From assembly GCA_958009085.1 (NCBI GenBank), contig OY253676.1, positions 496,001 through 560,000 of the forward strand: DNA of 64,000 nt, read 5' to 3'. Position numbers and translations under genes: made by a program. Numbering within the stretch: position 1 is the stretch's first letter; the number at the start of each line of letters is the position of its first letter. Positions 320 to 62,400 of this stretch are shown here, piece after piece. The DNA is from Protoeuglena noctilucae (lineage: Eukaryota). The notes beneath the pieces are model-generated. The model was given only the letters and a program-made list of their open reading frames with translations. It did not search any database and had not been told where the DNA came from.

Positions 320-1792
320 TCACTTGGCTCTTGCCTTTCGCCACTTGTACACCGTGACGCCCCCCACTCGGCCCCCCTCGTCCTCGTATGGACTCTTCTC
401 CCCGCCCACCACGATCTTCCGCACTCCCTTCCCACCCTTGCCCGACAGCTTCTTCTGGAGCTCCAGCCTGCAAGGAGCCACGCGCTGGCTGAGCTCAGCA
501 GCTGTGCTCACATATCGGCAGCAGCTCCGACGGCCATGCATGGCCATCCATGCTACGCTGCCCTTCTGCTCAATAGCAACCCGACAATCCGCGTGTGACG
601 GGCCAATGCAGACGCAACGCGCTTCCTACACACAGCTGGCCCCTCGCCTGTCCGCCACAGCACGGATCTTGTCGTGGGTCTCCGCACGCTGTGCCAGCTC
701 CCGGTACGAAGCAAGCCGGTGACGCTCTGCCTTTTTCACCACGGCGGGCGCTGCGGGTCCCCCCGCGAGGAACTTGGGGTCCTCTAGCTGGCTCGACCTG
801 CGTGCGACGGCACACGGCAGGTGGCAGGTGGATGGCACATGGTCATGAGCGCGCGGCCCGCGCTGCCCATGGATCCAACGGGCCACGAGAGAGCTGACAT
901 CGTCTGCGCACCTGACGCGGTTGAACGCCCGGGACAGGAGGGCCTCTGGAGTGTCGAAGTGCTGGGAGGGGTCGAACTTGCGGGCCTCTTCCGCGGAATC
1001 CTGCGCACCAAGACACGCAGAGGGCCTTGATATCGAATGCCCAGCACGATTCGCGTTCAACCCCTCCGCCCGGTCCGCATCCGGCAGCTCACCACGAAGA
1101 CGGTGTGCTGGGACGGGGCCTGCACCCCCACAAAGTGCAGGTTTCGTTGCAGGCGCTCAATCTTCTTCATCTCTTGACCCGACTTGAGGCTCAAGTAGTT
1201 GACGTCTTGTGTCCGCATCAACGCGAGCTGCTCCTGCGCGCGTGGGGCCACGGCAAAAAGCCTTTGCGTGGGCGTCGCACCAGCGCGTCGCGCCCTGGGC
1301 CCCCTTCCCGCCGCCGCGCACCTGGGTGTACTTCTTAGCCTCCGCAGAGTTGACGACGTGAATCCCTTCCTTCGTCCGGCTCTTCTCCATCGCGAAATAG
1401 AACTCGTCGGGGTTGCGCTGCTCGGCCTTCTCCTGCGCGTGGACGGACAGGCGGGGGTCACGCACCTCGTGCCCGCACTCCTGATGCAGTAGAGGCGCAC
1501 ATGCCAGGCGCTGGGCTCGCCTTGAGCTTCTTGATGGCGTCATCCTTTTTGTGGAAGTCCCGAGCACGCTGCACGTAGTCCTTGTGCTTCTCCAGCAGGC
1601 CCAGCTTGCTCCGCCATCCCCTGCATCCAAGCACGCGAAAGCTGCATTGCTCGGGCCCAGGACAAAGCGGCTCTCGCTCGGCGCAGTCCGCACACGCACG
1701 ACTCACGGCTGCGCTCGCTCCTTGTGCGTCCTCCGCTTCACCACCTTGCTGAACGCCCTCTCGGACTTCAGCTTCATCGGACGCTGCCCCAT
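320..1792 (-). CDS. UTP11: U3 snoRNA-associated protein 11 (SSU processome), about 7 exons
   Basis: Spliced peptide VKRRTHKERAQP|..RSKLGLLEKHKDYVQRARDFHKK..|EKAEQRNPDEFYFAM..LMRTQDVNYL..HFDTPEALLSRAFNR..YKWRKARAK matches Utp11 motifs. Confidence 0.93.
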
Positions 1793-2135
1793 GGCGCGCG
1801 TCGTCCGGCCCAGCAGGGCCGAAATGGGAGCCGGGGCTGCCGGTTGGAAAACGTGACAATCCTGCCCCGGGCGGGATAGATGAGGCCTCCTTCCGATCCC
1901 CAAGCTTACCCAGTTGCTACAGGAACACGCGTCTGGCCTCGGCGTCGCGCGAAACGCTCCTTCTCTGCCCAGTCGTCCGTCAGACCAGACAGACAGGAGC
2001 CGCCGGTCGTCGGCTGCATCCACCGGGGGTGGCGCTCCGTGTCCAAATACAAGTCCGGTCCTGTCTCTCGTAGGACGGCTATCCGCCCTGCCGTCTCGCG
2101 CCGCCCTGGCATCGCGGGGGCCAAGCGGCGGGACG

Positions 2136-5100
2136 ATGTCGGCGTCCTCTGTACCGGCATCTCTCTTGGTGGGAGATGTCGCGAGGGTGCGGGTCTCGAG
2201 GGGATCGGCGGGGGCCCGGGGGCTGGTCGTCTGCTCGGCCGAGCGCCCTGGGGTCCCCGAGAGGCAGATACCCCGCAGGCCTCTGTGGAAGTCGCGGGGG
2301 ATGAAGGTCGCGGTGCTGGCGGTGAGGACAGGGGGCGAGGGGTTGATCGGAGGGCGTGGTCGGGCAGCGCGGGCGTCTACAGCTATTTGCCGTCCTCCTG
2401 GGGCCGATGGCCCGCTGGCTGCTGCAGACAGCGAAGGTACTGGATGAAGATACCGCTTGAGGCCCGACCTGTCGCCGGCGAACTCCCCGCTGACGAAAAC
2501 GCGAGCGCTGCGCTGGTGCGACCTTTATCGATGGCATCCTCCCCGATGGGCCTCTCTCGCCGCAGGCAACCCTGACCGTTGCATCGGCTGCAGTCCCAGT
2601 GGATGTGGGAGGAAGCGGAGGCGCCGGCCCAGCGGGCGGTGGCGGCGGGGGGGGTGGCGGCGGGGGCGGGTGGGGGCTCATCCGGCGGGCGCTTCTTGCG
2701 CGGGCGGACGAAAAGTGAGGGCGCTCTGCTGGCCATTAGATGACTGTTATCTCCCCATCCAGCGTGTTTCGTGCCCCGCCGCGATGCCGCGCGCGAGGCC
2801 CCGGCACTGACGCTGCGCGCCCCTTCCCATGCTCCGCAGCGACGATGACGATGAGGAGGAGGAGGAGGAGGTCGCGGAGGAGGACGAGGAATTTGAAGAA
2901 GAAGTCGCGGAGGAGGAGGAGGGCGGGGCCGGGGACGGGGAGGAGGACCACCCGGACGACGTGGCAGCGGCGGGCTTTGCGGGGGAGCATGCGCTGGACG
3001 TGGCGAGCGGGGACTTCTTCTGCTACGAGATGCGCGCGGAGGGCCTGCCGCGCGAGGACGGCGTCCCGACGGAGGAGGAGCTCTTCGCGAACCTCAAGTG
3101 CCAGCCGGGCTTCAAGTGCACGCGCCAGGAGCTCTCGGAGGACCTCCGCACGCTCATGGGCCTGGGCCTGTTCGAGGACGTGACGGCGACGGTGGACCCG
3201 ATCCCGGGCACGGCCAAGTCCAAGCTGACGGTCCGCTTCGACCAGAAGATTTGGCCAAGGATGCAGAGCTTCAAGGTCAACGGGGCGACGGTGCTGCCGC
3301 CCGAGGTGGAGGAGCGGGTCATGGAGGAGCAGGGCAAGACGGAGGGGCCGAGCAACATGCGGACGCTCGCGCTGATCAAGAACGTGGTCGAGAAGTGGTA
3401 CCAGGACCGAGGCTACCCCTTCTCCTACATCCAGACGTACGACGGGATGGACACCGGTGAGGGGCGCGGGGTCGGCGTGGCGGGAAGCGGTGCACGATCG
3501 AGACCACGGACGGCGTCCTGCAGATGTAGACAGCTGGCATGGGTGGGGGTGTGAGCGGGCTCCGCAGGGCGCGAGCGTGCGTGTGTCTCTGAGAGTGCCT
3601 CGGTCCCCCTGCGCAGGCCATGTGGTGGCGAACGTGGTGGAGGGTCGCGTGAGCAAGGTCAACCTGGTGTTCCAGGACGAGGCGGGCAACACGATCAAGG
3701 GCGGTGGCGAGACGGACCCGGCCATCATCACGCGCGAGCTGCCGTTCAAGGAGGGCATGCTCTACAGCCAGGAGGACGCCCGCCGCGCGCTGCGGGACAT
3801 CTTCGCGACCAACCTGTTTGAGAACGTGCAGATCGCGCCGCGCCAGAACCCCAAGAACGAGCGGGAGGTCGAGGTGGACGTGCTCCTGAAGGAGCGGCCC
3901 GCCAAGGTGACTACGCGGGACGCTTGCGGCAGAGCTGGTGCTGGATGCGCGGGGGGGCGGGCCTCTTGATTGTGCCACCCCTCTGCGCGCCGACTGTGCG
4001 CTCGGGTGTCGCGGTCAGCTGCCAGCGAGCGCCAGGACCGTCGCCCTCGCGCGCAGTCGGCGGAGGTGGAGGCCGAATGGCAGCTGGCGCCCAACGACCG
4101 CGGGTGGCCCATGCTGGTGTCGATCGTGCCGGGCGGCTCCGTCACGTTCGAGCACCGCAACCTCCAGGGCGTCGGGAACCAGATCTCCGCGTCCATCAAC
4201 ACCCAGAACTTCCTGCAGCCCCAGGACGACCTCGGCTTCAAGGCGAGACCGCAGATGCTGTGGCGCCGCTGTTTGACGTGCCACGCGCCGGCGACCGTCT
4301 CTCCGCATCGTAGCGCTGCGTGCGGCTGGGTCATTGCCTGCCTCGGCTGTGCTCTGCAGAGAGCCAGCACGCAAGTTGTAACCGCCGATGGGGTCAGAGT
4401 CACAGAGTCCCGGCATACACACAACTGACACATGCAACTCCCCGTGTCACGCAGGTGGATTACAAGATGCCGTTCCTCAAGGGCCCCGGCGACCCCCGCC
4501 GCACGTCCCTGAGCGTGTCCGCGTTTAACGCACGCAAGCTCTCGCCCGTGTTCACGGCCGGGCCCGGGATGGACGCCACGGAGGTCCCCTCGGTGTGGGT
4601 GGACCGCACGGGGGCCAAGATCTCGGTGCACGAGACGTACACGCGGCATTCGTACGGCCAGCTGTCGCTGCTGCTCCAGGACGTGACCACCTTCGACGAC
4701 CAGGGCCAGCCCATCGCCACCGCCAGCCGCGCTGGACCGTCGTTCGGCCGGGGCCCAGACGGGGCGCCCCCCACGACCCTGTCCGGCACGCACCGCGACC
4801 GCACGGCCACCCTGCAGGCCACCATCGTCCGCGACGCGACCTACTTCGTCAACGGCGCCCTCGTGGGCCCCCGGGATGTGTTCAAGGTTGACCAGGGCCT
4901 CGGCATCGGGCCCGGGGCGCCCCTCTTCAACCGCTTCGAGGCCTCCTCGTCACGGTGAGCGGCGCGCGGCGAGGGCGCGGCGCTAGCCTGGGCCGCGTGC
5001 GCAGGGGAGGTGCTGAGCTATCTGGTGAGACATCCGTCGACCCCCTCGTCACCCCCCCAGGTTCATCCCGCTGACTCAGCCACGGAAGGGGACGACGCAG

Positions 5101-7084: not shown

Positions 7085-10000
7085 TCAGCTGAACTTGCCC
7101 ATGGCCTCCTTCAGCGCGTCGAAGATGAGGTCCGCACGCGCCACCTGCTCGATGCCCCCGCCCCGGTTCTTCACCTTGTCCGGGTGCACCACCAACAGCG
7201 CCCGGTGGTACACCTTCTTGACCTTGCTCTCATCGATCAGGTCCGCCATCGACACTGCAGCGCAAGGGGGCGGCGAAGGCGTCCATGGGGCGCTGGCGAC
7301 CGACCCCGGGACCCCAGTCGGGCCTGGAAGCCACGCTTGCTTTTACAGGTTTCGAACGTCACCCAAATCGCAGCCCTTGGTGTAAGGTCACACATGCGAA
7401 GAAACCCAAGGCAAAGGACTGCCATGGGTATCGACATTGCCCATCCTGCCCTGCACCCCACCCCCCACGCCTCCACCCCAACCCCTCGCAAGCGCGCACC
7501 TTGCTTCCACTCGCACTCGGGCCACAGGACGCGGTCCATCGTAGCCAGCAGCGTGCGCAGGTTCCCCTTCGAAGACGCCCGCCACGACTCCACCTCGGCC
7601 TTCAGCTCCTTCTTCCGCTCGTACGCCTGCTCCTTCTCCTCTGCCGCCTGACGCTCCCGCTCCTGCGCAGGAAACAGCAGCGGGGATGGAGTCAGTGCCC
7701 CCGGGCGCCTCGAAACGACCGACCGGCGCACGGGCTTACGGCAGCCGAACCCAGATCGACCGTCCACACAGCGGACCCACGCCGTCTAAGCCGGCGCCTA
7801 GGACCACTGCGTGTTGGCCCCACAAACTCCCTTCGCCGCGACTGCGGGGACCCGCGCGCAGGGTCTCCGCCCGGGCACTCGCCTGTTGCTCCCGCAGCGC
7901 CTTCTCCATGGCCGCCTTCTTTTGTGCGATGCGCGCGATGCGCAGGCGGCGCCGCTCCTCGGGCTCGCCCTCCACCTCCACGTCCTCCTCGTCCACTGCG
8001 GACACGATTGCACGGTGAACGTCAGTTACACGTCGAAGAAGGAAAGGGGCGACGAGCGGCTTCCCTCTCTCGCAAGCGGCCTGTGCGACAAAAAGCGGTG
8101 TCAGTCCGCAGCCGCACTCACGTTTGATCCCGTCGCCCCCAGAACCCCCGAACATGTCGAGCAGGCCACCCCCGGCGCCGAACCCAGCGGATGCCGCTGC
8201 CGGCGCCGCTGCGGGCGCGGGGCCCATGTCGAACAGGTCCCCCACAGGTTGGGGGCTCGGGCGCGCCGCCGGCCGTGGTGCCGGCGCCTGGTTGAAGATG
8301 TCCATCTCCGGCTGGGCCGGCGGGGTCGGCGCGGCGGGCGACGCGGCCGCCGCGGCGCTCCGGGACGGCGTGAAGTCCCCGCCCAGCAAGTCGTGCTCCT
8401 CCGAGGCCCCCGCGGTCGCTGCCGTGTGGGGCGACGGCGGCGCGGCTGCCTCGCCTCGCGCGGACCCCTCTCGCTGGGCCGTGCCCGACCCCGGGACCCC
8501 CTGGCTCGGCTCTCGGCTGCCCGGCACCGTCGGGGCCCGCGGCGGGTGCGTCGCCGACGCCTCGCGAGACACGGGGGTGGAGTGGGAGGCCCCGTGGGGG
8601 GACGTCGGTCGCCGCGCGGCCGCCTCCGGAGCCGCCCGCGGGTGCAGCGGCGAGGGCTGCGGGGCCTGCGGCGCGGCCGCTTGGGGCGCGGTGCGTTGCT
8701 GCGCGGCGCGAGCGCGGAAGGGCGCCATGGCGGCGTCGATGACCTCGGGCGTGACGTCCTCCACGGTCGGCGGTAAGAGCACGTGGCCGTGGGCCGGGCG
8801 AGGGATGACGCCGCCCGAGACGGTGATCGTGTCCAGCACCAGCAGCACCGCGTCGCGCTGCGAGGCATCCATCGCGCTGCGGGCGCACGCAGGAGGGGCA
8901 CGCGCTGAGGGCAGCGGGGCGCGCTCCAGCGGGGCGCGCTCCCTGCCGCCAACCTGGCAAAGCCCCTCACTTGATGGCCGCCTTTCGGTCCCACTCGGGC
9001 AGCAAGAACAGAGAGACGCCCTCAACCACGAAGTAAGGGTCCACGTCGAGCACGGGCGGGCTGGTCAGGGCCCTCGACCGCTGACGCTCGGCCACGTTCT
9101 GGTCCATGTGCGTCCGGAACTCCGCAGCCATCTGTTTCGCGGACTCGGCGACCTTCTTGCCGAAGTCGCGCGCCTTGCCCAAAATGCCGCGGAGGCCCCC
9201 GCCGCCACTGCAAACGCCAAACCACTCCTCGGGTCACGCGCAGCTGGCAGGTAGTATCACGGCAGCAGCCCGCCCGGCCTGCAGCCCCTCACCCCTGCTG
9301 CGCGCCGCCGCGCAAGAAGCTGGGCTCCGAGGGCACATGGCTGGCGTCGGCGGGGTGGCCGGCCCACAGCCCCGGCCCGTGCCCGGGATGCGCGAAGGCC
9401 GGCCCCGCGGACCGAGCCGCCTCTGCGCGCCGGTCCTCCGCGTCAGGCATCCACGCCGGGGCGCCCTGCGGCGCCTCTGGCGTCGCTGACCGAGGCACAG
9501 TCCTGGACCCTTGGGAGCCTTCGCTGCCGTCCACGCCCCACCGCTGACTGACCGGGCTCGGCTCGCCGGTGCTGCTCACGGGGCGCTGCGGCCGCGCTCC
9601 TTCCAACGAACCCCGCCCGGTCATGCCCTCTGCGCCTGCCGCGCTCGCGTAGACCTGCCCCGCGTGCCCCACGGGGCTGTGCACCTGTGCCGGCTCCGTC
9701 GAGCGCGGCGCGGGTGCTGGCGCCGGCGCAGGAGCGGGGGCCGCGAAGCCCGCGAGGAGGTCGTCGCCGGCGTCGGGGGCGTGGTTGGCCACATGTGCTG
9801 GCGCCGGGGCTGCCGTGCTGGGGATGAATCCCAGGCCCAACGGGTCGTCCGCGGCGGCAGCGCCGGTGGGTGCGGGACCGGAGACGGAGATGCCCGAGAA
9901 GGGGTCGTGGAGGCCGCCCGCGCCGGGAGAAGGCGCGCCAAAAGCATCCACTCCGAGCAACGGGTTGACGGCTGCATTGCGGAGGCCCGAGGGCCCCGGC

Positions 10001-11811: not shown

Positions 11812-11820
11812 CAGCCCAGG

Positions 11821-13022
11821 ATGGCCTCCCCGGCCCTCGACCCGGGGCCCCAGGCTTCGGCCTCGGCCCCCTCCACCCACGGGACGCGATGGCCGCCTCC
11901 GGGGGAGCCCGTCGCCGGGAAGCCCGGCACCAGCGGCACGGAGACGGCGTCGACGCGAGGGTCGAGCCCGGCCCCCAGCGCGGGGTGCCAGCCCGGCCTC
12001 GTCTGCTCCACGCCGTCGCTGGCCGCCCACGCCGGCGGCGACGGAGCGTTCGGACCGTCGGACATCCGGGGGCGCCAGCAGGGCGCGTCGGATGCGTCCG
12101 CTGCCGGGACGTCGGGCGCGTTCCCTGGGCCGGCCTCACGTGGCCGGTACTTCTCGCGCGAGCGGTGGCTCCCGCTCATCACATCCTGCCTGGAACGCAT
12201 GGCGGGCGTCAACACGGAGCGACTGTCTGACTTCCACGCCCCGGGTCCCACGGAGTCATCGACGGCCCACCCCGCGCCGCCCGCCGTGCCCGTGGCCCCC
12301 GCGGCAGCCCTCCAGGCTTTGCGTCCCGGCGACAGCGTCTTCCATGGGCCCAGGGAGGCCCCTCTGTCTGTGGCGGACTACCTGGACCGGCTCTACACCT
12401 ACTTCCAGTGCAACCCCGCTGCGCTCTTCGCGGCGCTGTGCTACATCCGGCGCGCCTCCCTCTCCGACCCGTACCTCCAAGTAACTCCTCTCACAGTCCA
12501 CAGGCAAGCGCGGTCTTGGGAGCTGCAGTCCCGTCTCGGCTGGGCGCGCGTGCCTTGCCAGGAATCATGGCCTGCCCTGGGCTCCCGGTTGCGACTCCCT
12601 TGACCCGCAGGCTGCTCCTCGCTGCGCTCACGGTCGGCGCCAAGTTCTTAGACGACCGCTTCTTGTCAAACGCATACTACGCGCGGGTGGGGGGGGTCAC
12701 GCTCCGGGAGCTGAACGCGATGGAGGCCGAGCTGCTGCGGAGGCTCGGGTGGAGAGCCACGGTCAGGTGCGAGGCCTGTGTGCTGGGGCCGCCTGGAGGT
12801 GCCGCGGGTCACGGTGCTACGCGCCGCAACGCGGGTGGCCCTCAGTTGGCAGTGCCAAACACCACGTCTCCCTTGGTCGAGGAATGCAGGGAAGAGGACG
12901 TGCTTCAAATTATGGCCATCCTGGAGATGGACGGCTCTCTTACTGACAACCCATTCGGCGTGGGGTCCGGTTCCGATGAAGAGGGCCGCGCTGCCGCAGA
13001 TGCAGAGGCGCGCGAGCTGTGA
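11821..13022 (+). CDS. PHO80-like cyclin (plant cyclin P/U family)
   Basis: FHGPREAPLSVADYLDRLYTYFQCNP..ALCYIRR..VTPLTVHR|LLLAALTVGAKFLDDRFLSNAYYARVGGVTLRELNAME. Confidence 0.9.
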
Positions 13023-13096
13023 GGTCTCGACAACCCTCCACGACAACCCTCCACAAATCTCCATGTCTTTCTTGTTCTAGCCTTCCCACCACACTA

Positions 13097-13118: not shown

Positions 13119-13139
13119 GGACGCGGCGAGCAGGCCGCG

Positions 13140-18800: not shown

Positions 18801-19922
18801 TCATCGCCGCACAGAAGCGATGACCACGTACACGAGCACCGCCGCCACCAACACCATGATGAGAAGGAGGCGCCAGTTGTTGCCGCGCTTGAGCACCGCC
18901 ACCACCTGCTTGCGTATGAACCTGCGGGACCACGCAGGCGTTGCGCTGAGCGGCCCTCGACAGCCATTGCAGCGGCGCAGGTCCTCAGCGCCCAGCCGCG
19001 CTCCGCTCCGTCATCTCTGGCCGACTCGCCTCATCCGCGACTGCACGGCCTCCGTCTCCGAGTCCACGTCCGCCAGAATGCGGTTCTGCTCGTCCAGCTC
19101 CGTGTTGATCGTGATGGCGATGTTCTTCACGGCACCCACGTGCTCGCTCAACAGTCCGAGCTCCTCGTCTTGCTCCTTCATCAGCCTGAGCATAAGCGCG
19201 TCTTGGGTGAGGCGCCTCAGAGCCCAGCGTGTGATGAGCAGGTCAAGGGCATTTCCCAAAACAAATCATAACCCACCTGTCCTGTAATTGCAGCGCGCCC
19301 TCCGCGTCCAGCCCCACCGTCTCCTCGGTCTCTTGGGCCGGACGCCCCGCCTGCCCGGACGGCCCCCCCCGGCTTCCGGCAGGACCCGATGTGGACCCTC
19401 CCAGCAGCTCGCTCTTGTCGCTCTGCAAGCTGTTCGCCAGCTGCTTCGCCATCTGCGGCACTTGCGCGGCTGGGCTGGGGTCTTGCGGCACGGGGAGGAA
19501 CGTTGGTGGATGACAGTACAAGTGACTGATGCGCGCACCTGCGTCCGGCGCATCCTCAGGATGGATATCATGTCTCTCCTCCGCGACTTCTCCTGCTTCG
19601 ACACCTCCCGACTCTCGTCCCGGTCGAGCTTCACCTCCAGCTCATCCGTCAACGTCGCAAGTTGCCCCAAGCGCTGCCGCAGGCCCGCGCTGAGCTTCGC
19701 GGGCTGCTTCCCCTGACGTATCAACTGAGCACGCTCCTGTGAGGAGCAGAGAGGCCCGCATTGGCCTCGCAACGCGGCGCGAGCGGGGAATGCAGGGCCC
19801 CTCGCAGCGCCGGGGCTCTCCTGGATCCCATCCTGGATGGACTTGGCCGACTCGTTGGCAGCATCGTATAGCCGGAGCCAATCGTCGGCCTTGGCGCTCG
19901 ACGCGCCTAGGACGCCGGCCAT
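18801..19922 (-). CDS. Qc-SNARE of the SYP5/syntaxin-8 type
   Basis: ADDWLRLYDAA.., ETEETVGLD..LQLQDR|LMKEQDEELGLLSEHV..INTELDEQNRILADVD, C-terminal TM LLLIMVLVAAVLVYVVIA. Confidence 0.85.
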
Positions 19923-23039: not shown

Positions 23040-24534
23040 ATGGCGCAGCAGAGCGCTGTCCGGAACTGGGAGGCGCAGCAGCGCACGAACACAGTGCTGG
23101 CGCAGTCCATCAAGCAGCTGAAGGATGAGCTGGTGAGCACCGCCCGCAGACGGGATGTACCGCATCGAGCTCTACAACAGATATGCCACTGCCCGGCCGC
23201 CTTGCCGGGTCCCGGAGCGCGCGTGCGACGAGCGGCGCCCCTGCATGTGGTGACATCCCGTGACCCCCGCGTCGCCGCGCAGAGCGCTTTGAAAGAGCTG
23301 ACGGTGTGGAAGGGAGAAATGGAGGAGCAGGTCAACAGCATGATGGACGAGATGGACACGCTGAGGCGAGGCGCCCGGCTCCCCCGCGTGCAGCGGGCTT
23401 CCCAGCCTGGCGGCGCCTTCCTGAGCTTAACCTCTGAGCCCGCCGCCCGCAGGAACGGCGTGAAGCAGGCGCAGCTCAAGCGGCAGGCTTCGATGGCCGG
23501 GGCCTCGCAGATGTGGGGCAAGGTGTCGCAGCGCGTCATGAACATCGTCCGGGGGGGTGGCGATGGCGAGGGCAAGTCGGCCAAGGTTGCGGACGTGGAT
23601 GGGCCGTTCCCGGCGACGACGCCGGCTCGGAGCCACCTCAACACGGCCGGGACCATCGCGCTCCTGGTGTCGCTCGTGATCCAGGGCGCCCTGTGCGTCC
23701 CCATCGGCGTGTGGGCCTACCAGAGCGGCGGGGACACCAACACGCGCGATGTTGCCATGGTTCTGTGCGTCTGCGGCTTCGTCATGGCCTGCCTCGGCGC
23801 CCTGGCCCTCATCCGCCTCAACCGCTGGCACACGGCCACCTTCGTCGCCTTCCAGCCGTGGGTGGTGGCCCTCGGCGCCATCTACCTCACGCTCAACGTC
23901 AAGGACGTCATCAAGGTCAAGGACCTCTGCGACGGCGACTCGAGCTCCACCTGCAAGGACCTCCTGAAGAACTCCTCCGTCAAACTCTCCCTGGGCGTCG
24001 CCATCGTCCTTGTCACGACCCTCAACTCCATCTTCCTCCAAATCAAGCGCGACAACCTGGTGACGGCGTGGCGCGAGGGGACCGGGGGCTCGCTCGGCCC
24101 ACCTGCGGCTGCCTACGCGCCGGGCGACCTCCAAAGGGCCCCACCGTGCGCAGGCATGGTGGTCTCGTCAAGAGGCGACCCACCCATTGCCACCTCGTCC
24201 GCAGGTCATCCAAGACATGATCTTCAAGCTCCCCATGCGCGTCCGCATGATGATGGGGTCGGCCGATGCTACAGCCGTTGCGCCCCTGGCCCGTGCGCCA
24301 TCCCAGCTGCAGAAGACCAACTCGGCCGTCGCGATGCTCACTGGCGCGACATCGATGTCCCTCTCGGGCAACAAGACCAAGATGCTGTACGCCCGTGTGT
24401 CGTCCAAGCAAATCATGAAGACCGGGCGCAGGCCCAGCGGGTTCAACGGCAGCGGGGCCCTGGGCAGCAGCAACCTGGGGCCCAAGCTCGGCTCCGTGCC
24501 CATGGAGGGCGCCATCACGGCCGTGCAGGAGTAG
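23040..24534 (+). CDS. Unknown protein: N-terminal coiled coil plus four TM helices
   Basis: Long GC3-rich ORF with heptad-like N-terminus, four hydrophobic segments and a Cys pair (LCDGDSSSTC) in the loop between TM3 and TM4. Confidence 0.65.
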
Positions 24535-45700: not shown

Positions 45701-47131
45701 GGTTGCCAACATTGCTGTGGGGTGCTCTGCTGTCTCATACCCTGCCACGCCAATGCCGCCCACTCAACGCGCCCTCACCAACAGCAGATGGCCATGTCTA
45801 TCAAGCTTGTACGTCATGCCTCTGGTGCTGATGGACTCCACCGTTGCTGGTCCCCGCAGCGCCCAGAGAATGAGGCACATCGTCGAGGCCTTCCTTCGCG
45901 CGGGGGCCAACATCCATGAGGCCGTCACAGCCCAGGTCTCTGGGATGGCGCCCCTGGTGCCCGAGGCAGCGGGCAAGCGCCGGGTGAGCGGGGAGTGGGG
46001 CGACGGGAGACGTGGCTGGGTGCTACGGGTGTGCCGACAGCGCCAGTGGTAAAGATGGCTGGGCGCTTAGCAGACGAGTGCACGCTCACTGTGCACACTC
46101 CGGTCGTCCCTCGGTGTGCAGGGGACGGACCTGGCCGCTGCGCCGTGGATGTCAGGGTCGACCGCGCAGGCGTGCAAGCGGTGCGAGAGCTGCGTTGCGA
46201 AGAACAACCGGAGGCGAGTGGCGTGCGTTGAGGGGACACTTACTGACGCGGTCAATGGCGTTGTATACAACAGTCTGTCCTCGCCCCGGCGTCGCAGGTG
46301 CTTCATGGTGCGTGTGGGCCTGGCCGCCAGGGCAGGGCACCACGGCGCGCAGCTGGCGGCGTACGGGGAGGACTGCATCGGGGCAGTCATCGAAGTCTAT
46401 TGGCCCCTTGATGAGCGGTGCTACCGGGGGAGGATCGTATGGTTCAACCCCTTCACGGTGCAGCACGTCGGTGAGGGCCGGTTGCTGTGACGACTCTGCG
46501 CTCACGGCGGGGGACTAAAAGGGCTCATGACTGTTACTGTGCGGTACAAGAGCACCACCGGGTGGTGTTTCGTTAGATCTGGACTACCTCACTGGCCAGT
46601 CACAACGGTACCCCACCTTGCGACACTTGCATGTCCCTGGACTGCGGGGCCTGCCGTGACTCAGCGAGGGTCGCGCCCGTGCAGTGCTGTATGAGGACGG
46701 GGACGTGGAGAACCTGCACCTCTGGACGGCCAACCAGACGATCGTGCTGTGCTCGCGCCCGGACGAGTGGGCCGGGGAGCGCCAGCGGCTCGCCAGGCGA
46801 GGCGTGCTGCGCTCGCAGGGAGGGGCACCGGAGCGAACGATGGAGCCGGAGCTGGCACTAGAGGCATCCTCTGTCGACATGAGTATTGTTCACAGCTTGG
46901 CAGATGCTGCCTGGTACATCAGGGCACACCCACCCGTGCCTCACAGCGATCGACGGTGTCAGAGACGAGGACTGCTCTCTTGTTAAGCGCGCAGGGACCC
47001 GCTGGCAAGGAAGCTCATGAACGTGGAGGCATCGAATCCTGCCAGGGGCCGCGTCACCCGCGGGGCACAGGGGGCGGCGGTGGGCAGCACGAGCGCGGAG
47101 TGAGACGGGAAGGGAAGGGCGCGTAAGATGA
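42768..47131 (+). CDS. DNA (cytosine-5)-methyltransferase with C-terminal CxxCxxC zinc motif and Tudor-like domain, about 14 introns
   Basis: Motif I SLFSGCGG, IV GFPC, VI FENV, VIII PHRRKRIF, IX LRLTDAERLQGLP, X IGNAV; then CKRCESC-x8-C and IEVYWPLDERCYRGRI..H..LYEDGDVENL; last exon uncertain. Confidence 0.88.
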
Positions 47132-50765: not shown

Positions 50766-52960
50766 ATGGAGGACCGCGGACCGCGAGGGGGTGCTGGGCA
50801 GGATGTTGCACCCATGAACGGGGAGAAGGCCGCGCGTGAGCGTGGCGAGGCATCCACGGAGCGTGAGAACGGCGAGTCCGCTTCCGAGTCATCGTCCTGG
50901 TGGGAGAACTTATCCGACAAAACGCGGAGGGCGGCCCAGAGGGCAGGCGAGATCTGCGCAGTGATTTCTCGCCCGCGGGGCGCACGAAACCCAGCGCAAG
51001 CATCGCGTGATGGAACAAAGATAATGACGATAGACAATGACGATGGCGAGTCCCGAGTTTCGTCGACATGCCCGCTGCAGAGCCCCTCGTGAAGCGCGTC
51101 AGCGAGGCGACGAAGAAGACGGCGGCGAACGTGGCCCGTTATGCCCAAGAGACGGCCAAGGCGGCGAAGCGGCACGTGTCGGACCTGGATTCGAGCGCCC
51201 CGCTCCGTCGCTTCACGGAAGCCCTGAATTTGCAGCGTGCAGAGGTGGCCACGGACGAGCCCACGCAGGCGGAGTTGGAGGCGAGGGCGTGCGACTTGCA
51301 GCTCATGGCTCATTCCGTCGCTCGGCGGTCGCTGTCTCCCGAGCTGCGGTGGCGCCCATGTGCCAGCGGCGTGGCATCCCCTGCCACACGGATGTGGTGC
51401 TGTGCGACCGCAGTGGTACTCCATCACCGTGGCTGTCATCGACCTGGCCACCGGCCTCTCCTACGGCACGTTCCGGGACTTCCCCGTCGACCACCTCCCC
51501 CGCCCCGCGCGTGGCAGCGACCTGCCTGACGTGACCCCGGGGGAGGTCGAGTCCGTGCAGCACAGCGGGAAAATCACCTTCACGGACGGAGTCGACGACG
51601 ACGTGCAGGCAGAGCTCCTCACCTCGCTCCTGGTGCGACGAGACGGCTGGGCTGCCGGGGAAGGCTCACTTCCCTTAACTGTCACTCCCCTTAACTGTGC
51701 GTCTCAACCCCTCCCCATGCTCCTCACCTGCAGGCGACGCGCCTGTCGCCCTGGCAACAGCGCCACGCCCAGCTTCTTCTCTACAAGGTCAAGGAGCTGC
51801 GTTACATCCACGACGAGATGTGCGGAGGCGAGTGACAGAATGTCCCTTCTCTCGCACCCAGAATCGGACGTCCCATCCTCTCAGCTGCCCAGCAGCCCCT
51901 TTGCCCACCCGCGACCCTCCCTCGTCCCTCGCTGCAGACAACGCTTCTTTGGAAGTCCTTTTTTGGCTCATCTGGTTCCACCTGGCCCGCCACGTCCTGC
52001 CCACCAACCAAGAGCTCCCGTTGTGGCCCGCACGCAACGCACCAGGCCGCAAGGCACAGGGAGCCGCAGCCACGCCTCCCGGGCAAGTCACCGTGGCTCC
52101 GGGGGAGCACCCCATCGACCCTGCGCGCGTGGCTGGGCAGGGGGCACCGCAGGCGGAGTCCGCTGGGGAAGACGGCGACCGCCGGGGCTTCTGGACGGAT
52201 GTGTCGAGCTCGGTGCGCGTCTTTGGGAAGGATGTGGGCGGCGCGCTGGCGAGCTGGGGCAAGGACATTCGGACAGCGGGCAAGGAGCTTTGGGGTCAAA
52301 AGGGCGGGAGCGGGCAGGGTGCGGGCGGGCAGGGTACGGGTGGCGAGGACGTGGCCCGGGATGCCCAGGGGCCGCCTCAGGGAGAGCGCGCGGAGGAGGG
52401 CAGGAGCCTGGGTGGTCGGCTCAAGAGCGGGCTGACAGGCGAGGAATGAGCCGGTGATCGCGCGCGGGGCCGCACAGGTCGCGAGAAGCCATGGCAGATG
52501 TGCCTGAGAGGTTTATCGCACTTTGCATAAAAAAGTGACTCGCCAGCCCCTATCTGCAGTCGCCCAGCGGGAGGCGGTGGAGTTGGCGAGTCACTTCAAG
52601 GAGGGCGTCTTCAGCATCGGGAGGGACATGACGTTTGCGCGTAACTTTGTGCACCGGGGTGGCGGGGCCCATGGCGACTGGGCAGACGGCGCACCGGAGG
52701 CGGAGGTGGAGGCCATGCGGAGGGGGATCACGGGCACGGAGGCCGGGACCGGCGACGAGGCCAGGGCGGGAGCGGAGGCGAAGGCAGGGGCGGGCGACGT
52801 GCAGGAGACGCCTGGTGGCACTTTGGAGCGTGGGGCGAGCGCGGACATGTGGAGTGCCCAGGGCGGGGCACACGCAGAGCGGGAAGAGGGCATGCAGCCG
52901 GTGGCCGTGCACGTGGAGACACCCCCGGAGACCCCCGTGCAGAGCCCGCGCCAGCACTAG
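50766..52960 (+). CDS. BSD-domain protein, 6 exons
   Basis: TFRDFP..LSPWQQRHAQLLLYKVKELRYIHDEMCG|DNASLEVLFWLIWFHL (BSD FW motif), resembling plant BSD proteins. Confidence 0.75.
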
Positions 52961-53009
52961 CACTAGCGAATCGAGTGTGGGTCCGGAGTTGAACGCGTCC
53001 GCAGCTACG

Positions 53010-54434: not shown

Positions 54435-54847
54435 CGCGCCCGCTCTCAGGCGATGCGCTCGTCTAGAGGGCCCCGCCCGGCTCCCTGCTCGCTCCCGGGG
54501 CCGTGTTCGCCCAGACTATCCTAGCAGACCTCGCTCGGTCAGAGAGTAGGCGGCTCACTCGTGCTCGTGGACCGCTAGCAAAACACTGTGCAAGCCCAGC
54601 GCATCCAATCCCCCGCTCCCTCCGTGTTGCCGCATCATAGCCGTGACGCGCGTGGCGACCTTGGAAGTCCTCGCCCGCTGGTCTGACCGGTTTGGCCTCG
54701 TAGGTGGCGCGCGTTTCGGGTCGGGAGCGGCGGACTCCCTTCGATTTTCGATGGGGGCACCGTCCCCCGGACCCGACTCGGGCTAGGTCCCGGCGGCGTC
54801 CATCGCAGCGGCACTTGGCCGGCGTTTCCTGCCTTTCCCGCGACGCC

Positions 54848-57800
54848 ATGTCCCGAGAGGAGTACGATGGGGTCAAGGAGGCCCGCAAGGAGGTCCTGGG
54901 GCACCTTGTCCGCCTCTGCGACACGTTCGGGGTGCGGCGCGCCCGTGCCTTCGGTTGCCGCGATCCTGGCGCCTTTTTCGCCGCCCCTGGCCCTCGCGTG
55001 ACATATACCCGAACACCGATGGGTTTGTTATGCGGGTCTGTGCCGCTGAGATCCCGCGTAGCACCGGGATCTACCCGGGGCAGCACGGGGCGAGGGCGCG
55101 GGCCGACCCATCGCCGCGACGCAACGCGCGCCCCACGCGCGGCCGCAGGAGATCAAGAACGTCGGCGTGAAGTCACAGATCGTCAACATGGCCACTGGCC
55201 TGCAGCTCTTCAGCGTGTCGAACGCCGGCAGCCCTCAACTCGCTGTGGAGTACCTCCTGGACTGTGCCACGGAAATCCCGCCCAAGGCGAGGCATGCCGC
55301 CGAGCCCCGTGTTTTCAAAGATGCATTTGATTCAGAGCTGGCCGTTGGAATCGCACGTGGAGGCCGGGCGCTCGCGGCGGGCCAGCCCTCCAGCGCACGC
55401 TGCCGCGATCGCAGGTCCCAGCTTACGCGGGCATCGTGGCGGTGCTGGCAGTCAAGGGCCACACGGAGTTGGCGTCCCTGGCGCTCCGCACGTGCTCGGA
55501 GCGCCTCCACGCGCACCTGCAGGAGGGTGCACACCCGCAGGCCCGGGGCATGCTGCGTTTCCTGGCAGCCTGCGCCGCTTACGGGGCGATCCCCGCTTCC
55601 GTGGTGCACGCCGTGATGGCCGCCGTCGTCAACGCGGCCGGCCACTGCGCCATGGCCGGCGCGGGCCGCGCCCACACGCTGTGGCAGCCGTACTGCGACT
55701 CGCTCGTCCGCATCACGCTGCTGGCGCTCCCGTTCGGCATGCCCGCCCTCCGTGAGCCCGTGAAGGGCAGCGACGCGGCGCAGGAGGAGGACGCGTTGGG
55801 CCGGCTGCTCTCTACGGTGGGCGCCTACATGGCGATGCGGCCGGCGACCGTGGACCGCCGCTTCGGCCCCACGGGCGCCCTCCCGGACGGCACCGAGTGC
55901 GGGGACGACTCTGGGATGTACTCGCTGACGGGCGACACGTTTCAGGCCGTCCAGGAGTGCCATGCGCAGGGCAAGTGGACCGACGTCCAGGTGCGCGCAG
56001 TGTGGGTCGCAGGGGTAGCGCCTTGCTCTGCCCTCCCGCGGGGCTTGGCGCACCCATCCAGCCGGAGTGCGTGACTCCCGTCCGCCTCGCACCTGGTTGC
56101 AGACGGTCCGCCTGTTTCAGTCAGATCTGGCAGAGGTGCTCATGGGACTGACGCCCCTGGAGGTGGAGCTCGCCCCCATCGAGGCCCCCGTCCAGCCCCC
56201 GCGCGTCGACCCTCAGGCGAACGAAGCCGTCATTGCCGCGGCGCTCGTCGAGCACTACGGGCCGAGGGGACGCATGAGGGTGAGGCGACGAAGTGCCTGG
56301 CGCCCGCCTTGCGCCTTGCCAACTGCGCTGCACATTGGCAGCCGGGGTCTTCGCGGAACTGCTCGCACCGTACTGTCACGCTTGATCAGGCCAGTCGCCA
56401 CCCGCTGCACCGTCGCTCGAGTCGTCTCCCCATCATCGTGGCGACCGACACATGTCGCCCGCTCGTGCTTTCAGATCTTGGACCCGGCGGTGACGCGCGG
56501 GACGGCCCTGCTCCTGGAGCGCATCATGTTCGAGGACTACGTCACAGACATCATCGACGTCTGGCACGACGACCGCACCGAGTGCGTCAAGCGACTGGCC
56601 ACGCTCCCCGTCTCGCCCACCCAAGCCGCCTCGTACGCACCCATGCTGGCAGAGGCCCTGTTCGGGCAGGTCCTCCGCCTGCCCGTGCCCCGCCACCGCC
56701 TCATCGCCTACTTCGTCGTCATGGTCGACCTCTGCCGCCTCAAGAGCATCTCCTTCTCCCGGGCCATGTCCGGGTGCATGCGAGAGCTCTTCAAGCTCAT
56801 GGGGACCCTCGACGCGGCCCTGCGCGACCGCCTCGCCGAGTACCTCGCATACCACCTGAGCTACTTCGACTTCATCTGGCCGTGGGACAAGTGGGCGCAC
56901 GTGGTGGGCGCGCCCAAGGTGAGACCGCGTGCAAAGCGCCTAGCACCGCCGCGCTCCAACCGACCACCGCGCCCGCCCCGCCCACGCTGAATCCCCGTCC
57001 CACCCGGCCCTTTCGCTCCGCAGCACGATCCTCAGCGCCACTTCTGCCAGCTCCTCCTGGCACGCGTCCTCCGGGTGTCCTACTGGGGCAAGCTCCTCGA
57101 CTCCGTGCCGGCGTCCTTCGAGCCCCTGCGGCCCTCGGAGCCGCTCCCGGACCCCGCGCGGCCCCCGTCCGTGTCGACGGCGGACCTGGGCGGGCTCGAG
57201 CCCTGGCGCAGCGTGGCGGACGAGGTGGCGGGGATGACTTCGGGACGCGACAAGGTGTCGGAGGCGGAGCTGGGCGACTACCTGGGGCAGGCGGGGTTGC
57301 GGGAGCGCCTGGGAGGCTCGGCGGCGCTCCTGCGCGCGGTGGTGCGGGGGGTGCTGGAGGGAGGCGCCAAGTCCCTGACGCACTCGGTGGCCGCTTTGGA
57401 GCGGTACGCGAAGCCAATCAAGGCCGCGGTGGAGGCGCTCGAGGGCGAGGGGGAGGCTGTGTGTATCGAAGGCGAGAAGGGGGCTGAGGGGGCGGAGGCG
57501 GGGTGGGGTTGTCAGGCTACCCCGCATGGTTCGATGCAGGCCACGTGTTCTTCGTCATAACGCCTTCGTCCCTTCCCTGTGATGCAGCCGCCGCCGATTT
57601 CTACAAGCACAACCCGCAGCGCTTCCTGATCATGATCGACCGCATGATGGGCTTGCGGTTCGTGGGCGTGGAGGCGCTTGTGCGGTGGTGCGCTGCTCAG
57701 GTGACACCCGTTGGCCGCCGCGTGCTCGCCCACTGGCACAGCATAAGTGGTGGAACCTGCTGCGTATGGCGTCTGCTGACGTCCTGGCTCATCGTGCATC

Positions 57801-58597
57801 GCAGCCCGCCCTGACTTCGGTGCAAGACCCGCTGCCGTCCGCGACGGTGTGGGAGGCGCTGCACGGGGCCCTGGACCGGATGGTGGCACGCACGACTGAT
57901 TGCGTCAGCGACGTGCAGCAGGCTGCCGGCGTGCTGGGACAGTCCAGAGACTACGAGCGGGATGCGTTGGCAAAGCTCGAGCAGGCACGGGAAGCGAGGG
58001 AGAGGGGGGAGAGCCGCGGGCTAGGAGAGGAGGAGGAGATCGAGGGGGCGGAGGGGCGCGTCGTCGCGGCGCGGCAGCGAGTGCTGGCGGCGGAGCAGGC
58101 ACTTCAGGACGCGCAGGCGAGAGCGGAGGACGTGCCGGATGCTCGAGGCGTGAACGGGGATGGCTGTTTGCGATCAGGCTTTCACGCTGCGTGATTCCTG
58201 CTTTCCTCTGCACCTGCAGGACGCGCTTCGGACCGCCGAGGAGGACGAGCGGAGGGCGTTGCTCCAAGCGCTGTCGCTGCTGATAGCTCGACTGGGGGAC
58301 CCCGCCGCGATGCCGCCGCCCCCGCCGCCCAAGGTCGTCCACCCGCGCGCTGTCTTCGGCGCGGACGCCAATGGCGGTGGCGGGGACGATGAGATGGGCG
58401 AGACGGGGGAGCTGGACGAGGAGGCGCGGCGAACGCTGGAGGTGCACCGGTTGATTGTGCGGATCGGCGGGGTCGCGCGGAAGTACCTGGCGCGTCTGGC
58501 GCCCAAGTGGGGAGAGTTGGACGGCGAGGTGTGCGCCCAGGGGCGCGTGCATCCGCGGGTGCGGGACGCAGTGGTCGGGGTGTTTACCGGCATATGA
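54848..58597 (+). CDS. CBP80: Nuclear cap-binding protein subunit 1 (CBP80/ABH1)
   Basis: LLDCATEIPPK|VPAYAGIV, LAEALFGQVLRLP..YFVVMVDLC, RDRLAEYLAYHLSYFDFIWPWDKW, GAKSLTHS..LERY, NPQ..IDRMM. Confidence 0.92.
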
Positions 58598-59444
58598 GGT
58601 GCACACGGCCGGCCCGACGCGCTCCTTGAAAGCTTGAATCACCACCTGTCGTGCTGATCATCATGATGTGCACTTTCCTCGCCTAGTCAGGTCAGCGTCG
58701 GACGGAGGAAGCTGTGAAAGCTGAGCGTGTGGTCGTTCGTCCCGCGAGCTAGTCATCTTACTGGTAAAGAACCCGTCGTCTGGTTTCGTTTCGCACCCGA
58801 CCATCCACCCCTCTGAAACTCCAGGCTAGATTCGCGCAAAAAGCTTTCCTCACATGCTCTGCACGATAACGCCGCTGCATTGGGAAAGGAAGGTGCAGTG
58901 ACGTGCCAGCTGACGGCCCGGCGTCGCTCGGTGCCCGGGGTGGGGGGGGATGGCAGCGACGCCTCCCCTAGGTGTGGAGCGTTTGACCACTCGTCCCGCC
59001 TTCGACGACGTCCTGTCCGAAGGTGCGTTTTTGCGCTCTCCCCGCCACGCGCGATGACCCGGAGTGACCGCCCCGAGGCGGGCAGCCCTTGGCTGGTGGC
59101 CAGGCATACAGTCGCTTGAGGCCTGCGCGCCCGGGCCAGCGCTCCAAAATGGCTTGGCGGTGCTCCACTGTCATGAATGCTTTCTTGCGTTGCCTGCGGT
59201 ATGCACGAGCACACGCACGCCTCCCGCAACGCGCGCAGCCCCGGCGTACATCTCGCGCGGCTTTTCTGTCGACGACGATGCGCCACACAACAGTCTGCCC
59301 GCGTCTGCGCATGCTTCGTGGGCACGGGAGGATGGGGGAGAGGACGGGGACGGGAAAGTCACGCGCCTGGGGCGGAGAAGGGACTCGAAGGCGAGGAAGG
59401 GGTCTAGGGTTCGCCGCGAGTGCACGGAACGCGTCCTCTCAGCC

Positions 59445-62400
59445 ATGTCACAGGCCGCACCTGTCAGATGTGACTGGCTGTCATCGTCCCTGCAGGCCAG
59501 CCGCATGGGCCGACGACGCAGCGTGATGCGCAGCTTGGGACAGGGTCTGGGGAACCTCGTGAAGACTCTCTCGCGTGCCATATCCGGGATCGGGAGCACG
59601 TTTTCGCGTTCCATCTCACGCATCAGCCAGGATGAGCTTGACGAAGCGCTGGGGGACACGTGAGCACACCGCGAAAGCCGGAGGCGAGTGACGAGCGATG
59701 CAAGAGATGCGATGCGCAGACGGCCTCCCCACGACTCTCCTGCCCGCAGAGCTCCACGGAACTCCGACGCTGCTGCTGTGGCGCGCGCTGCGCCTCCCCC
59801 GGACCCCCGGGCCTCTGAGAGCTTCACGTCCCGCCCGGCCCCGGCCCTGCCCAAGCCCAAACCGGGTCCCCTGCCCCACCCGCCAGCCCGTCCTGCGGCC
59901 CAGGCTCGCGCTGACACGGACGACCGTACGCGGGCGCTGCAGGAGATGCCGCCCGAGCTGCACCGGGACCTGATGGGTGTCATGCGCCTCCCGACCCCCG
60001 TGGGTGGCATCGAGCCGCCGCCGTTAGATGCCTGGGACCCCTCGCGCTTCGAGGATGCCAGGGACTCGAGCAGCGACGTCCCGGAAAGCGCGGAGAGATC
60101 TCCACGCGCCCACACGTCTGCGCGGTGGAACCCGGTCGGCGCTGTGCACCAAGCCAGGGGCGAGGCACCGAGGCGAGGCGCACGTGCTGTGCTCTGGGGC
60201 ACACGAGAATGGAGCAGCTGCATAGCACGCGCTCTACCTTTCTCTGTCGCGCTGCCTGAGGTTGGCAGGAGGACTCACACAGTCGGCGACCCCCCGTTCG
60301 ACGCCTGCAGAGCTCGGCCTCAGCCGGCCAAGCTGAGTGACCAGCTGTGGGACTTCAAGGCCCCACATCGCAACGACAGCGGGGGCTTGATGAGCCTGGG
60401 AGACGTGCTTAGTCCCAAGGCGGACGTCGGCTCGGGGCGTGGGGATCAGATGTCGGACCACTCTTCAGTGATCGAGGACATGCAGGCCGTATCTCTCACG
60501 AACGGCTGGGCGGGGGCTCTGGCGGAGTCAGAGAGGATCGCACGGTGAGGCGGGGAGGTGCATGGGTGGTGGTCGTGACTGTCGAGATGCCCTTGGCTTG
60601 TCCCAGGCAGCAGTGCGGATGTGGCTCAGTTGTACGGGGTGGGGTGGGTGGATCGGGACGGACTGTGCTCGTCTACATGGTGGCGTTCGTGCTGTTGTTG
60701 CAGATACGAGCACGCGCAGGACAGGGAGAGGGAGCATTACCTGTCCTCGCGGTCGATGCGCATGCGGGGCGCAAATGGTCGCGGCGGGGAGCACGAGCCC
60801 ACGCTGAAGGACCTGCAGGCGGCGGGACTGCAGCACACGTACGATGCGGTGAGTGTGGGGCAGGGAGGGGTGGCAGCACACGTATGATGCGGTGAGGGCG
60901 CCGCTCCTGCCACCGGCACACCCGTGTCAGCCCCATAATGTGAACGTACTTTGTGCTACAATCGTGGGCCTAGGCAGAACCATGCAATACCGTGTCTGCC
61001 TTTCGACTGCAGATGATGGACTTAGGCAGGAATATGCGGCGGGAGTTTCGGTCTTCCAGGGCCAGCCAGTCAGGAATGGGAAGCATCGCACCCGCCTCCG
61101 AGCCGCCCCCCGGGCCGACGCGAGCACAGAGCAACTGGTCGGTGAGATATGGTGCAGCTTCTTCAAAATCTGTAACACATCGCTACGACCTCTTGTGTCG
61201 ATCTGTATTGCATGTCCTGTCCTCTGTCCTGCCTATGCGCGACCCCACATCCCATCGTGTCGCATCACACCCAACCCCTTGGCTCCAGACACCCCGCCCA
61301 ACCTCTTCCAGGCACCCTCCGCCCCACTAAACGCTTCTTGATGCGTCTCTCTCATTCGCAGAAAGCGCGGACCGTGACCAAGGCCACCACGTTCCTGTCC
61401 ATCGCCTCGACACGCTTCCGGGCCTTGCAGCAACTGGCCACAAAGTCACTCGAGGACATCTACGAGGATGAGCCGGGGGAGACCAAGGAGAGCAAGGTGA
61501 GACGGGAATGCAGACGAAAAGACGCGCACTGAGGTCCAATCTGCTGACTTAGACGTTGGATCCTGCAAATGGACGTGCACGACCGACCCTTCCAAGCCCC
61601 TCGCCTGGCCTCAGTACGGCGGCCGCGCGTACCAGATGGCGCTGGAGGCTTCGGTGAACGAGGAGGCCCACCAGGCGCTGATGCACTTGGAGATGGAGGG
61701 GCGCAAGCAGGCCAAGCAGGATCGGGTGGCAAAGTACCAGGCGCGCAAGGCCGAAGAGGACAAACAGCGCGCCGACCACTTCCGGGAGCTCCTGCTCCAG
61801 CAGCAGGCCGAGACGGTGGCGGCGGCGGTCATCCAGACGTACGCGCGGCGGTGGCTGGCGGCGCGCATGGTGGCGAGGCTGCGCATGCGGCGGCGGCTGG
61901 AGCGGGAACGGGAGGAGGAACACCGCCGGGCGATGGCGGAGGCGGCGGAGAGGGAGAGGGCCGCGGAGGAGGAGAGGCGCGCGAGGGAGGCCGAGGAGCG
62001 GGCGCGGGTGGCGGGGGTGTTGGAGGAGCGGATGAAGGCGGCCAAGGTCAAGCACGTCAGCCGCGTGCGCAGGCACGGGCAGGGGCAGGCGCCGTCGGGC
62101 CTGGCGAGCGTGCGGGAGGGTCTGAGCCCCACGCCTCCCGGATGGGCGTCGCCCGCGCCGCCACGGGGCAACGCGTTGTTCAGCGCCGTGCGGGGCCCCA
62201 CTGCCACGGCGGACACGGAGCCCATCCTGAGGGATCCCGAGGGGCCACGCCCGGTCATTGGCCGGCAGAAGAGCCTGTCACTCATGGACGACAGAGGTGA
62301 GGGCCGATGGGCACGCGCTTGCGCGGAGAGGATGACAGGCTGTTGCTGCCCCAACCTCGAGACCCATGGGTTCCCATGGTGTGTGACCTGGCCCAACTGT

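Follow-up and report, generated by a model that had tools for sequence, protein, structure and literature searches.

Frequent GC-AG introns with full donor consensus in a 64-kb window from a GC-rich green alga

GC-AG introns make up 1.3% of introns on average over 61 surveyed species (PMC3033335). For a stretch of 64,000 nucleotides from Protoeuglena noctilucae (contig OY253676.1, positions 496,001 to 560,000; hereafter the window, with positions counted from its first letter), a preliminary description listed 17 GC donors among about 120 manually counted introns. Are these donors really used and, if so, what accounts for their number? The window is eukaryotic nuclear DNA with many short introns. 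Its GC content is 67% overall and 65-73% in every 4-kb bin. The source is a GC-rich marine green alga, since Toc75 and a mitochondrial carrier encoded in the window are closest to green-algal proteins. Toc75 is of the plant/green-algal type (top named matches Myrmecia bisecta and Mesostigma, 57%), and the carrier has Pedinophyceae sp. (51%) and Chlamydomonas (45%) as top named matches. All 17 listed positions proved to have the motif AG|GC(G/A)AG on the implied strand, which is the minus strand for 647, 1520, 7882, 19029 and 25353. On both strands together, AGGCRAG occurs 37 times while order-2 Markov simulations gave an expectation of about 32 ± 6; for AGGTRAG, 32 copies were counted and 10.5 expected. 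As AGGCRAG is present at chance frequency, the question becomes whether the sites are used as donors. For ten of the 17 sites, evidence beyond the motif was obtained (four RNA joints, one RNA loose end, one transcript-derived protein, two homologue scans and two Pfam matches) and none of the 17 was refuted, so that the claim of frequent GC-AG introns has been borne out.

RNA was available from four runs of 2016 (X1-X4), which belong to one study with at most three samples, as assembled contigs. They were aligned on positions 44001-64000 only, a 20-kb part picked because it contains nine of the 17 listed sites. There are 43 RNA joints in this part, and the results given here are among the 15 joints listed and a 16th, at 62297-62422, that was derived from contig pieces and is GT-AG. 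After placement ambiguity had been resolved, the 15 listed joints comprised six GT..AG introns on the plus strand, five GT..AG introns on the minus strand and four GC..AG introns. Each of the latter was found in all four runs, has a single spliceosomal placement and agrees to the base with a listed position. Junction reads using nearby GT donors had been named as what would contradict the idea, and for 51828, 55287, 57472 and 58117 no GT-AG placement exists. The first of these introns, all of which are on the plus strand, lies in a gene without Pfam domain (51828..51937, 110 nt), and its sole spliceosomal placement is GC..AG. The other three belong to CBP80 (55287..55414, 128 nt; 57472..57587, 116 nt; 58117..58219, 103 nt). 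For the last one, one of six placements, shifted by +4, is canonical and this is again GC..AG. The joint at 55287-55414 restores the PPK|VPAY motif of CBP80 as had been described. When the exons of CBP80 are connected according to the RNA joints, a single open frame of 889 codons results, and three of the eight introns of this gene are GC-AG. A further GC-AG intron on the plus strand (51281..51413, 133 nt) is indicated by a loose end of an X4 contig, which aligns from 51412 and whose eight loose letters correspond to the exon end 51271-51278; the frame is open across this junction. A search for eight 30-letter RNA loose ends within the window gave no hit. With four GC-AG introns among 16 visible RNA junctions, the binomial probability against a share of 1.3% is 4.6e-5. 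Mature RNA lacks the GC-flanked segments, and with their removal reading frames continue and conserved protein motifs are restored exactly.

Outside the region with aligned RNA, the syntaxin-6-like SNARE gene contains a GC-AG intron of 108 nt (18922..19029, minus strand). With the exon preceding 19029 as query, we found a protein of 250 amino acids (P0149; JGI/IMG and Logan, contigs of at most 2198 nt) that corresponds letter for letter to five window exons. Because the introns are absent and the contigs short, P0149 is RNA-derived. The sole canonical placement of the intron is GC..AG, and a nearby GT alternative to 19029 would delete five residues that the relatives P0150, P0153, P0157 and P0159 retain. 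P0149 also defines two GT-AG introns (19453-19538 and 19186-19276). In Toc75, a junction scan against the homologue P0123 placed a GC-AG intron of 212 nt at 4243..4454 (plus strand, GFK|VDYK junction). It is the only canonical one among the top-scoring placements, and a second homologue (P0125) aligns alike. The other introns of this gene are GT-AG. Two of them (3457-3616 and 4955-5060) were obtained with the same scan, the third (3907-4056) is seen as an alignment gap of 150 nt, its ends being taken from a gene model. P0123, the nearest relative found, is an uninterrupted Toc75 frame on two metagenome or metatranscriptome contigs (L001, L002) of 73% GC; it is 61-73% identical to the Toc75 exons of the window and represents either a transcript or an intron-free gene.

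For the mitochondrial carrier, a GC-AG intron of 94 nt was located at 25260..25353 (minus strand, FE|ML junction). In all six homologues, the similarity ends at 25354 (...FE) and continues from 25259 (ML...) without any gap, and a scan of all donor and acceptor positions gave GC..AG at 25260-25353 as the single canonical solution, both with P0004 and with P0005. As a control, the junction scan was applied to CBP80. It reproduced the two resolvable junctions known from RNA, and three further pairs of high-scoring segments had no canonical solution. The remaining two introns are supported by Pfam. In UTP11, an intron of 88 nt (1433..1520, minus strand) separates an exon frame matching positions 12-44 of the Utp11 profile from the next, which matches 43-76; in-frame GT alternatives to 1520 are poor. 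In the PHO80-like cyclin, an intron of 107 nt with the donor GCAAG (12504..12610, plus strand) lies between matches to positions 34-100 and 99-148 of the Cyclin profile. Of three acceptors tried, one runs into a stop and only 12610 keeps the cyclin profile going (TVH-R-LLLAAL...), by which the VHR|LLL motif is restored as described before. The Pfam scans covered 442 of 623 stop-to-stop open reading frames of at least 70 amino acids; outside were 150 frames between 30.4 and 45.0 kb and 31 inside CBP80. In these scans, no match was obtained for the genes around 7882, 19029, 23366, 46214, 50947-52439 and 60173.

The evidence-backed introns are 29 in number and have GT (18), GC (10) or GA (1) donors. 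All ten supported GC donors show the complete context A-2, G-1, R+3, A+4 and G+5, compared to only two of the 18 GT donors (Fisher p = 5e-6). If the comparison is confined to RNA-derived introns, the full context is found in 6/6 GC and 2/14 GT donors (p = 7e-4), and for the strictly unselected RNA joints a hand count gave 4/4 and 2/12, respectively. GT donors read GTGAG, GTGCG, GTGAC, GTGCT or GTGGG and often have a nucleotide other than A at -2. Position +3 is G in all 18 of them (GTG), and +4 is C in seven (GTGCG). Counted by hand, GT donors depart from AG|GTRAG at about 1.1 positions on average, GC donors at exactly one, the C at +2; within the core of seven positions, there is about one mismatch in either class. 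Neither intron length nor the pyrimidine content of the acceptor differs between the GC and GT classes. The preliminary description had suggested relaxed recognition of +2 offset by a strong exonic AG. The compensation is supported, but it extends beyond the exonic AG to R+3, A+4 and G+5. This is the behavior reported for GC 5' splice sites in general: the C at +2 is mismatched to U1, and the remaining positions make for a stronger site (PMC3167603). The GC-AG introns of humans and plants (about 1%; PMC3167603) belong to the same U2-type class and likewise offset the +2 mismatch by a stronger donor, whereas their frequency is exceeded more than tenfold here. A U12-type origin was rejected: the donors are GCGAG or GCAAG and not ATATCC-like (U12 consensus as given in PMC3033335), and there is no TCCTTAAC-like branch box. 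CTRAY-like boxes were detected in the last 60 nt of only four of 23 introns and a TTAAC-type box in one, a GT intron. A strict CTGAC branch box is not general in these introns, nor is there any fixed branch box.

We consider it very probable that these are ordinary U2-type (major-spliceosome) GC-AG introns in the nuclear genome of a GC-rich green alga, in which a large minority of donors is GC. As is well established, U1 small nuclear RNA (snRNA) recognizes the donor by base pairing. In this model, the pairing would extend over positions -2 to +5 and a C at +2 would cost one base pair. A GC donor would work only if all other positions are consensus (AG|GCGAG, once GCAAG), while GT donors would be free to place a mismatch elsewhere, as in GTGCG, GTGAC or with a nucleotide other than A at -2. 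GC-biased mutation or fixation would change T to C at +2 in otherwise strong donors, and GC-AG introns would therefore accumulate with genomic GC.

On the other hand, a lineage-specific change of the splicing machinery (U1 5' end, U6 ACAGA box, U1C or Prp8) might relax +2 to such a degree that GC, and occasionally GA, is equivalent to GT. In favor of this idea, GC donors account for a quarter of the visible RNA junctions, and for one SNARE intron the only placements are GA..AG and others with ends that are neither GT nor GC. Moreover, base modification of U1 or proteins of the U1 small nuclear ribonucleoprotein have been suggested by Iwata and Gotoh (PMC3033335). However, complete flanking consensus is required in all GC donors and in the GA donor but not in the GT donors, and this strict requirement favors an unchanged U1. 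In addition, Iwata and Gotoh reported a standard 11-nt U1 5' end for Aureococcus and two Micromonas species. An altered U1 is unlikely since Micromonas pusilla and Aureococcus are rich in GC-AG introns and have canonical U1 5' ends (PMC3033335). Rfam gave no match in the window, including snRNA. Altogether, a changed machinery appears improbable as the cause.

The SNARE intron mentioned above (19737-19820, minus strand) is 84 nt long, in frame, missing from P0149 and of non-coding composition. None of its eight possible placements has a GT or GC donor; the spliceosome-like one is GA..AG (cag|GAGAGC ... CTCACAG), and its GA donor has the same full flanking context as the GC donors. Because of the seven-letter microhomology at its ends, it is possible that this segment reflects a deletion polymorphism or a reverse-transcription artefact. 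It is also conceivable, if rather unlikely, that the donor of this alga is in effect AG|GNGAG and that +2 is not read at all. With perfect flanks, T and C would then be accepted, and A as well in one intron at least (19737-19820), owing to an altered U1, U6 or protein inspection of +2. If this was true, the alga would be a natural test of why GU is nearly invariant elsewhere.

Another explanation, to which we assign very little probability, is that most listed donors are chance AGGCGAG motifs which were used by the manual gene model and that the true share of GC-AG introns is a few percent. AGGCRAG is indeed present at chance frequency and seven sites are still candidates, of which 50947 is dispensable and 46214 has a plausible in-frame GT alternative. 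An ab initio gene model lost 647, 23366, 52439 and 60173 once the GC penalty had reached -1 to -2, and 46214 once it was -3. By contrast, the ten independently supported sites, with none refuted, already correspond to about 8% of the 120 introns, and among the visible RNA junctions the fraction is 4/16. The post-donor segments at all seven candidate sites have non-coding composition. The periodic-composition score used for this comparison was below zero for 20/20 validated introns and above zero for 51 of 52 exon chunks, and all ten candidate segments scored before verification were negative (-3.3 to -10.9). In-frame GT alternatives within 60 nt of the candidate donors are nearly all poor. Exceptions exist for 46214, with GTGCGA located 33 nt upstream, and for 52439, with GTGATC located 15 nt downstream. 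An in-frame stop 8 nt past the 52439 donor rules out GTGATC.

The candidate preceding the last UTP11 exon is 180 nt long (468..647, minus strand; composition score -10.9). UTP11 exon 5 matches positions 134-206 of the Utp11 profile, ending at about 650, and the sole close in-frame GT is GTAGGA (score -5.0), whereas all 18 supported GT donors are GTG. Judged from these sequence features, the GC-AG intron at 647 is likely to be real. Searches of PDB sequences with the two last UTP11 exon frames yielded nothing usable. The candidate of 220 nt at 7663..7882 (minus strand) has non-coding composition and was predicted at every GC penalty tried. Read-through at 7882 reaches a stop after 144 nt, and there is no in-frame GT within 60 nt. 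On the plus strand, the candidate at 23366..23452 (87 nt, in frame and stop-free) has a consensus donor, a CCGCAG acceptor and a score of -3.3, and the gene model predicted it only at zero GC penalty. The putative intron at 46214..46297 (84 nt, plus strand) shows consensus signals and non-coding composition; the in-frame GTGCGA would be its possible alternative donor. Consensus signals are also present at 50947..51080 (134 nt, plus strand), a doubtful candidate that was never predicted by the gene model, and an in-frame ATG just upstream of 51081 permits a coding start without this intron.

At 52439..52559 (121 nt, plus strand), the frame is open across the candidate intron and read-through stops after 8 nt. 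The RNA contigs of X1, X2 and X4 start or change their alignment at 52557-52559, which is a mere hint for this intron. The X1 and X4 contigs begin at 52559 and 52557, respectively, while in the X2 contig 52559 is preceded by 108 additional letters. The WD40 gene is convergent with this plus-strand gene, and its 3' end is overlapped by the final exon proposed for the latter (from 52560). The candidate at 60173..60310 (138 nt, plus strand, acceptor uncertain) has the motif and non-coding composition and was dropped by the gene model from a GC penalty of -2 on. It is extremely improbable that the C at +2 arose through faulty assembly or that the RNA-producing cells belong to a different strain with GT: the RNA (2016) and DNA (2023-2025) runs are separate data sets and the intron's own letters are invisible in exon-exon joints, but the four DNA runs contain 100% of the sampled words of 50400-60399 (the RNA runs 47-61%), the aligned RNA contigs do not show any letter differences, and it is implausible that T was independently misread as C ten times in one and the same context.

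How frequent GC-AG introns are can be estimated in several ways. The least selected sample are the RNA joints with 4/16. The ab initio gene model placed 65-77 introns in confident genes and had GC donors in 26 of 77 introns at no penalty and in 11 of 65 (17%) at a penalty of 4 nats. This model is order-0 periodic and crude. It recovers 17-18 of its 20 training introns, but one carrier acceptor is 18 nt off, two introns are fused at 51281-51733 and a Pfam-supported UTP11 exon is skipped under GC penalties. An earlier gene finder (order-2 coding, one training gene) had been dropped as it merged everything into giant genes, and sliding coding scores were dropped as too noisy. The share of 14% proposed in the preliminary description is plausible, and the true local share may be nearer to 20-25%; all estimates are far above 1%.

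Several points weigh against this conclusion or narrow it. AGGCRAG is not enriched in the window, so that the motif by itself proves nothing, and independent support is limited to ten of the 17 sites; among the other seven, 50947 may fall outside coding-region introns altogether. All RNA comes from one study in the form of assembled contigs, with 15 of the 43 joints listed. The GC-AG fraction is biased upward, as the 20-kb stretch and the homology genes were chosen for containing listed sites. The compensation test is partly circular, since part of the GC set derives from a list that was defined by the motif. The gene model over-calls GC donors at zero penalty and its non-consensus GC calls are unreliable: at one of them (62716-63084), the RNA contigs run straight through. 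The raised share applies to this single window of 64 kb, with RNA aligned on 20 kb of it.

The preliminary description had also considered GC pressure as the driving force. This part is supported indirectly, by the 67% GC of the window together with the published link between GC-AG abundance and genomic GC (PMC3033335), and by two metagenomic Toc75 relatives treated below. The novelty implied by it, by contrast, did not hold, as the abundance of GC-AG introns in GC-rich algae was published in 2011. In that survey, GC-AG introns reach 39.6% in Aureococcus, 22.2% in Micromonas pusilla, 7.7% in Chlorella sp. and 2.7% in Micromonas RCC299 (PMC3033335). A more recent preprint gives about 14-17% for Aureococcus and about 14% for Pelagomonas (bioRxiv 10.1101/2024.10.30.620910). 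With its GC content, the window lies within the range of about 64% or more that is typical of GC-AG-rich algae. In the literature searched, no report of GC-AG abundance was found for an alga matching this one, though its own genome paper may already describe it.

The closest parallel is Micromonas pusilla CCMP1545, which is also a marine, GC-rich green alga and has a similar GC-AG share, roughly one intron in four or five. For this strain, 22.2% GC-AG introns at 65.9% genomic GC were reported and GC content was proposed as the cause (PMC3033335). Unlike in Micromonas pusilla, the best named protein matches here are from Pedinophyceae, Chlamydomonas, Myrmecia and Mesostigma (45-57%), and the intron density looks high (eight introns in CBP80). 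Chlorella sp. is another GC-rich green alga with a raised share, which at 7.7% is lower than here (PMC3033335). Aureococcus anophagefferens and Pelagomonas calceolata resemble the alga of this study in being GC-rich and marine and in having abundant GC-AG introns of 100-180 nt, which were attributed to GC content. They differ in that they are stramenopiles with 0.19-0.9 introns per gene, whereas we are dealing with a green alga that has many. Emiliania huxleyi has a genome of 65% GC, common GC donors, some GA donors and the acceptor AG. Its 241 curated junctions have 56% GC, 40% GT and 4% GA donors (PMC4028052). Emiliania is, however, a haptophyte with predominantly GC donors, while GT donors prevail in the window (18 of the 29 supported introns, 12 of the 16 RNA joints).

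Relatives of the Toc75 gene were found on eukaryotic metagenomic contigs by scanning these with a Toc75 exon. On a contig of 68% GC (L007, 730-4956), four of six resolved Toc75 introns are GC-AG, with GCGCG donors lacking the A at +4. On a second contig of 54.5% GC (L003, 2003-4823), GT is present at three of the GC-AG positions of L007, and the fourth call is doubtful. The two genes are distant from the Toc75 gene of the window (49-55% identity), and none of the five Toc75 intron positions in the window coincides with the positions common to L003 and L007. A comparison of orthologous introns for 4243 gave no result, as neither L003 nor L007 has an intron there. The pair illustrates a turnover of GT and GC that tracks GC content, and the data point to heavy intron turnover between these green lineages.

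What is new here is a further green alga, outside of Micromonas and Chlorella by protein similarity, with GC-AG introns tracking genomic GC. The biological point is modest and no new question is opened, because it was already published in 2011 that GC-AG introns are abundant in GC-rich algae. The introns nevertheless form a small, clean data set for the idea that donors can afford about one mismatch to U1, and this at +2 only when the other positions are all matched. For annotation, the consequences are more immediate. Predictors insisting on GT donors would go wrong at about one in four introns of this alga, and it has been reported that GT-only gene predictors fail in Emiliania (PMC4028052). 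The protein collections searched do not contain the annotated proteome of this alga; its entries there are two read-through open reading frames (P0003, 25297-25962, and P0148, 19014-19265, both minus strand) and the transcript product P0149. The former two run from an exon into a GC-AG intron and illustrate the mis-annotation.

One irregularity of the RNA alignments concerns position 50718. After this position (plus strand), contigs of all four runs depart from the window into 30 letters encoding a KGFGFV-type RRM RNP1 motif. These letters occur nowhere in the 64 kb, and there is no splice-like dinucleotide after 50718; the departure may be due to a paralogue, an assembly break or a distant exon. 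By Pfam and homologue searches, the following genes were recognized in the window: UTP11 (about 0.3-1.8 kb, minus strand), Toc75 (2.5-5.5 kb, plus strand), a NifU/ISCU-like gene, the PHO80-like cyclin (about 12 kb), a glyoxalase, an ankyrin protein, a GT4 glycosyltransferase, the mitochondrial carrier (24.8-26.0 kb, minus strand), a MoxR-like AAA protein, an MBOAT protein, the WD40 protein (52.6-54.4 kb, minus strand) and CBP80 (54.8-58.6 kb, plus strand).

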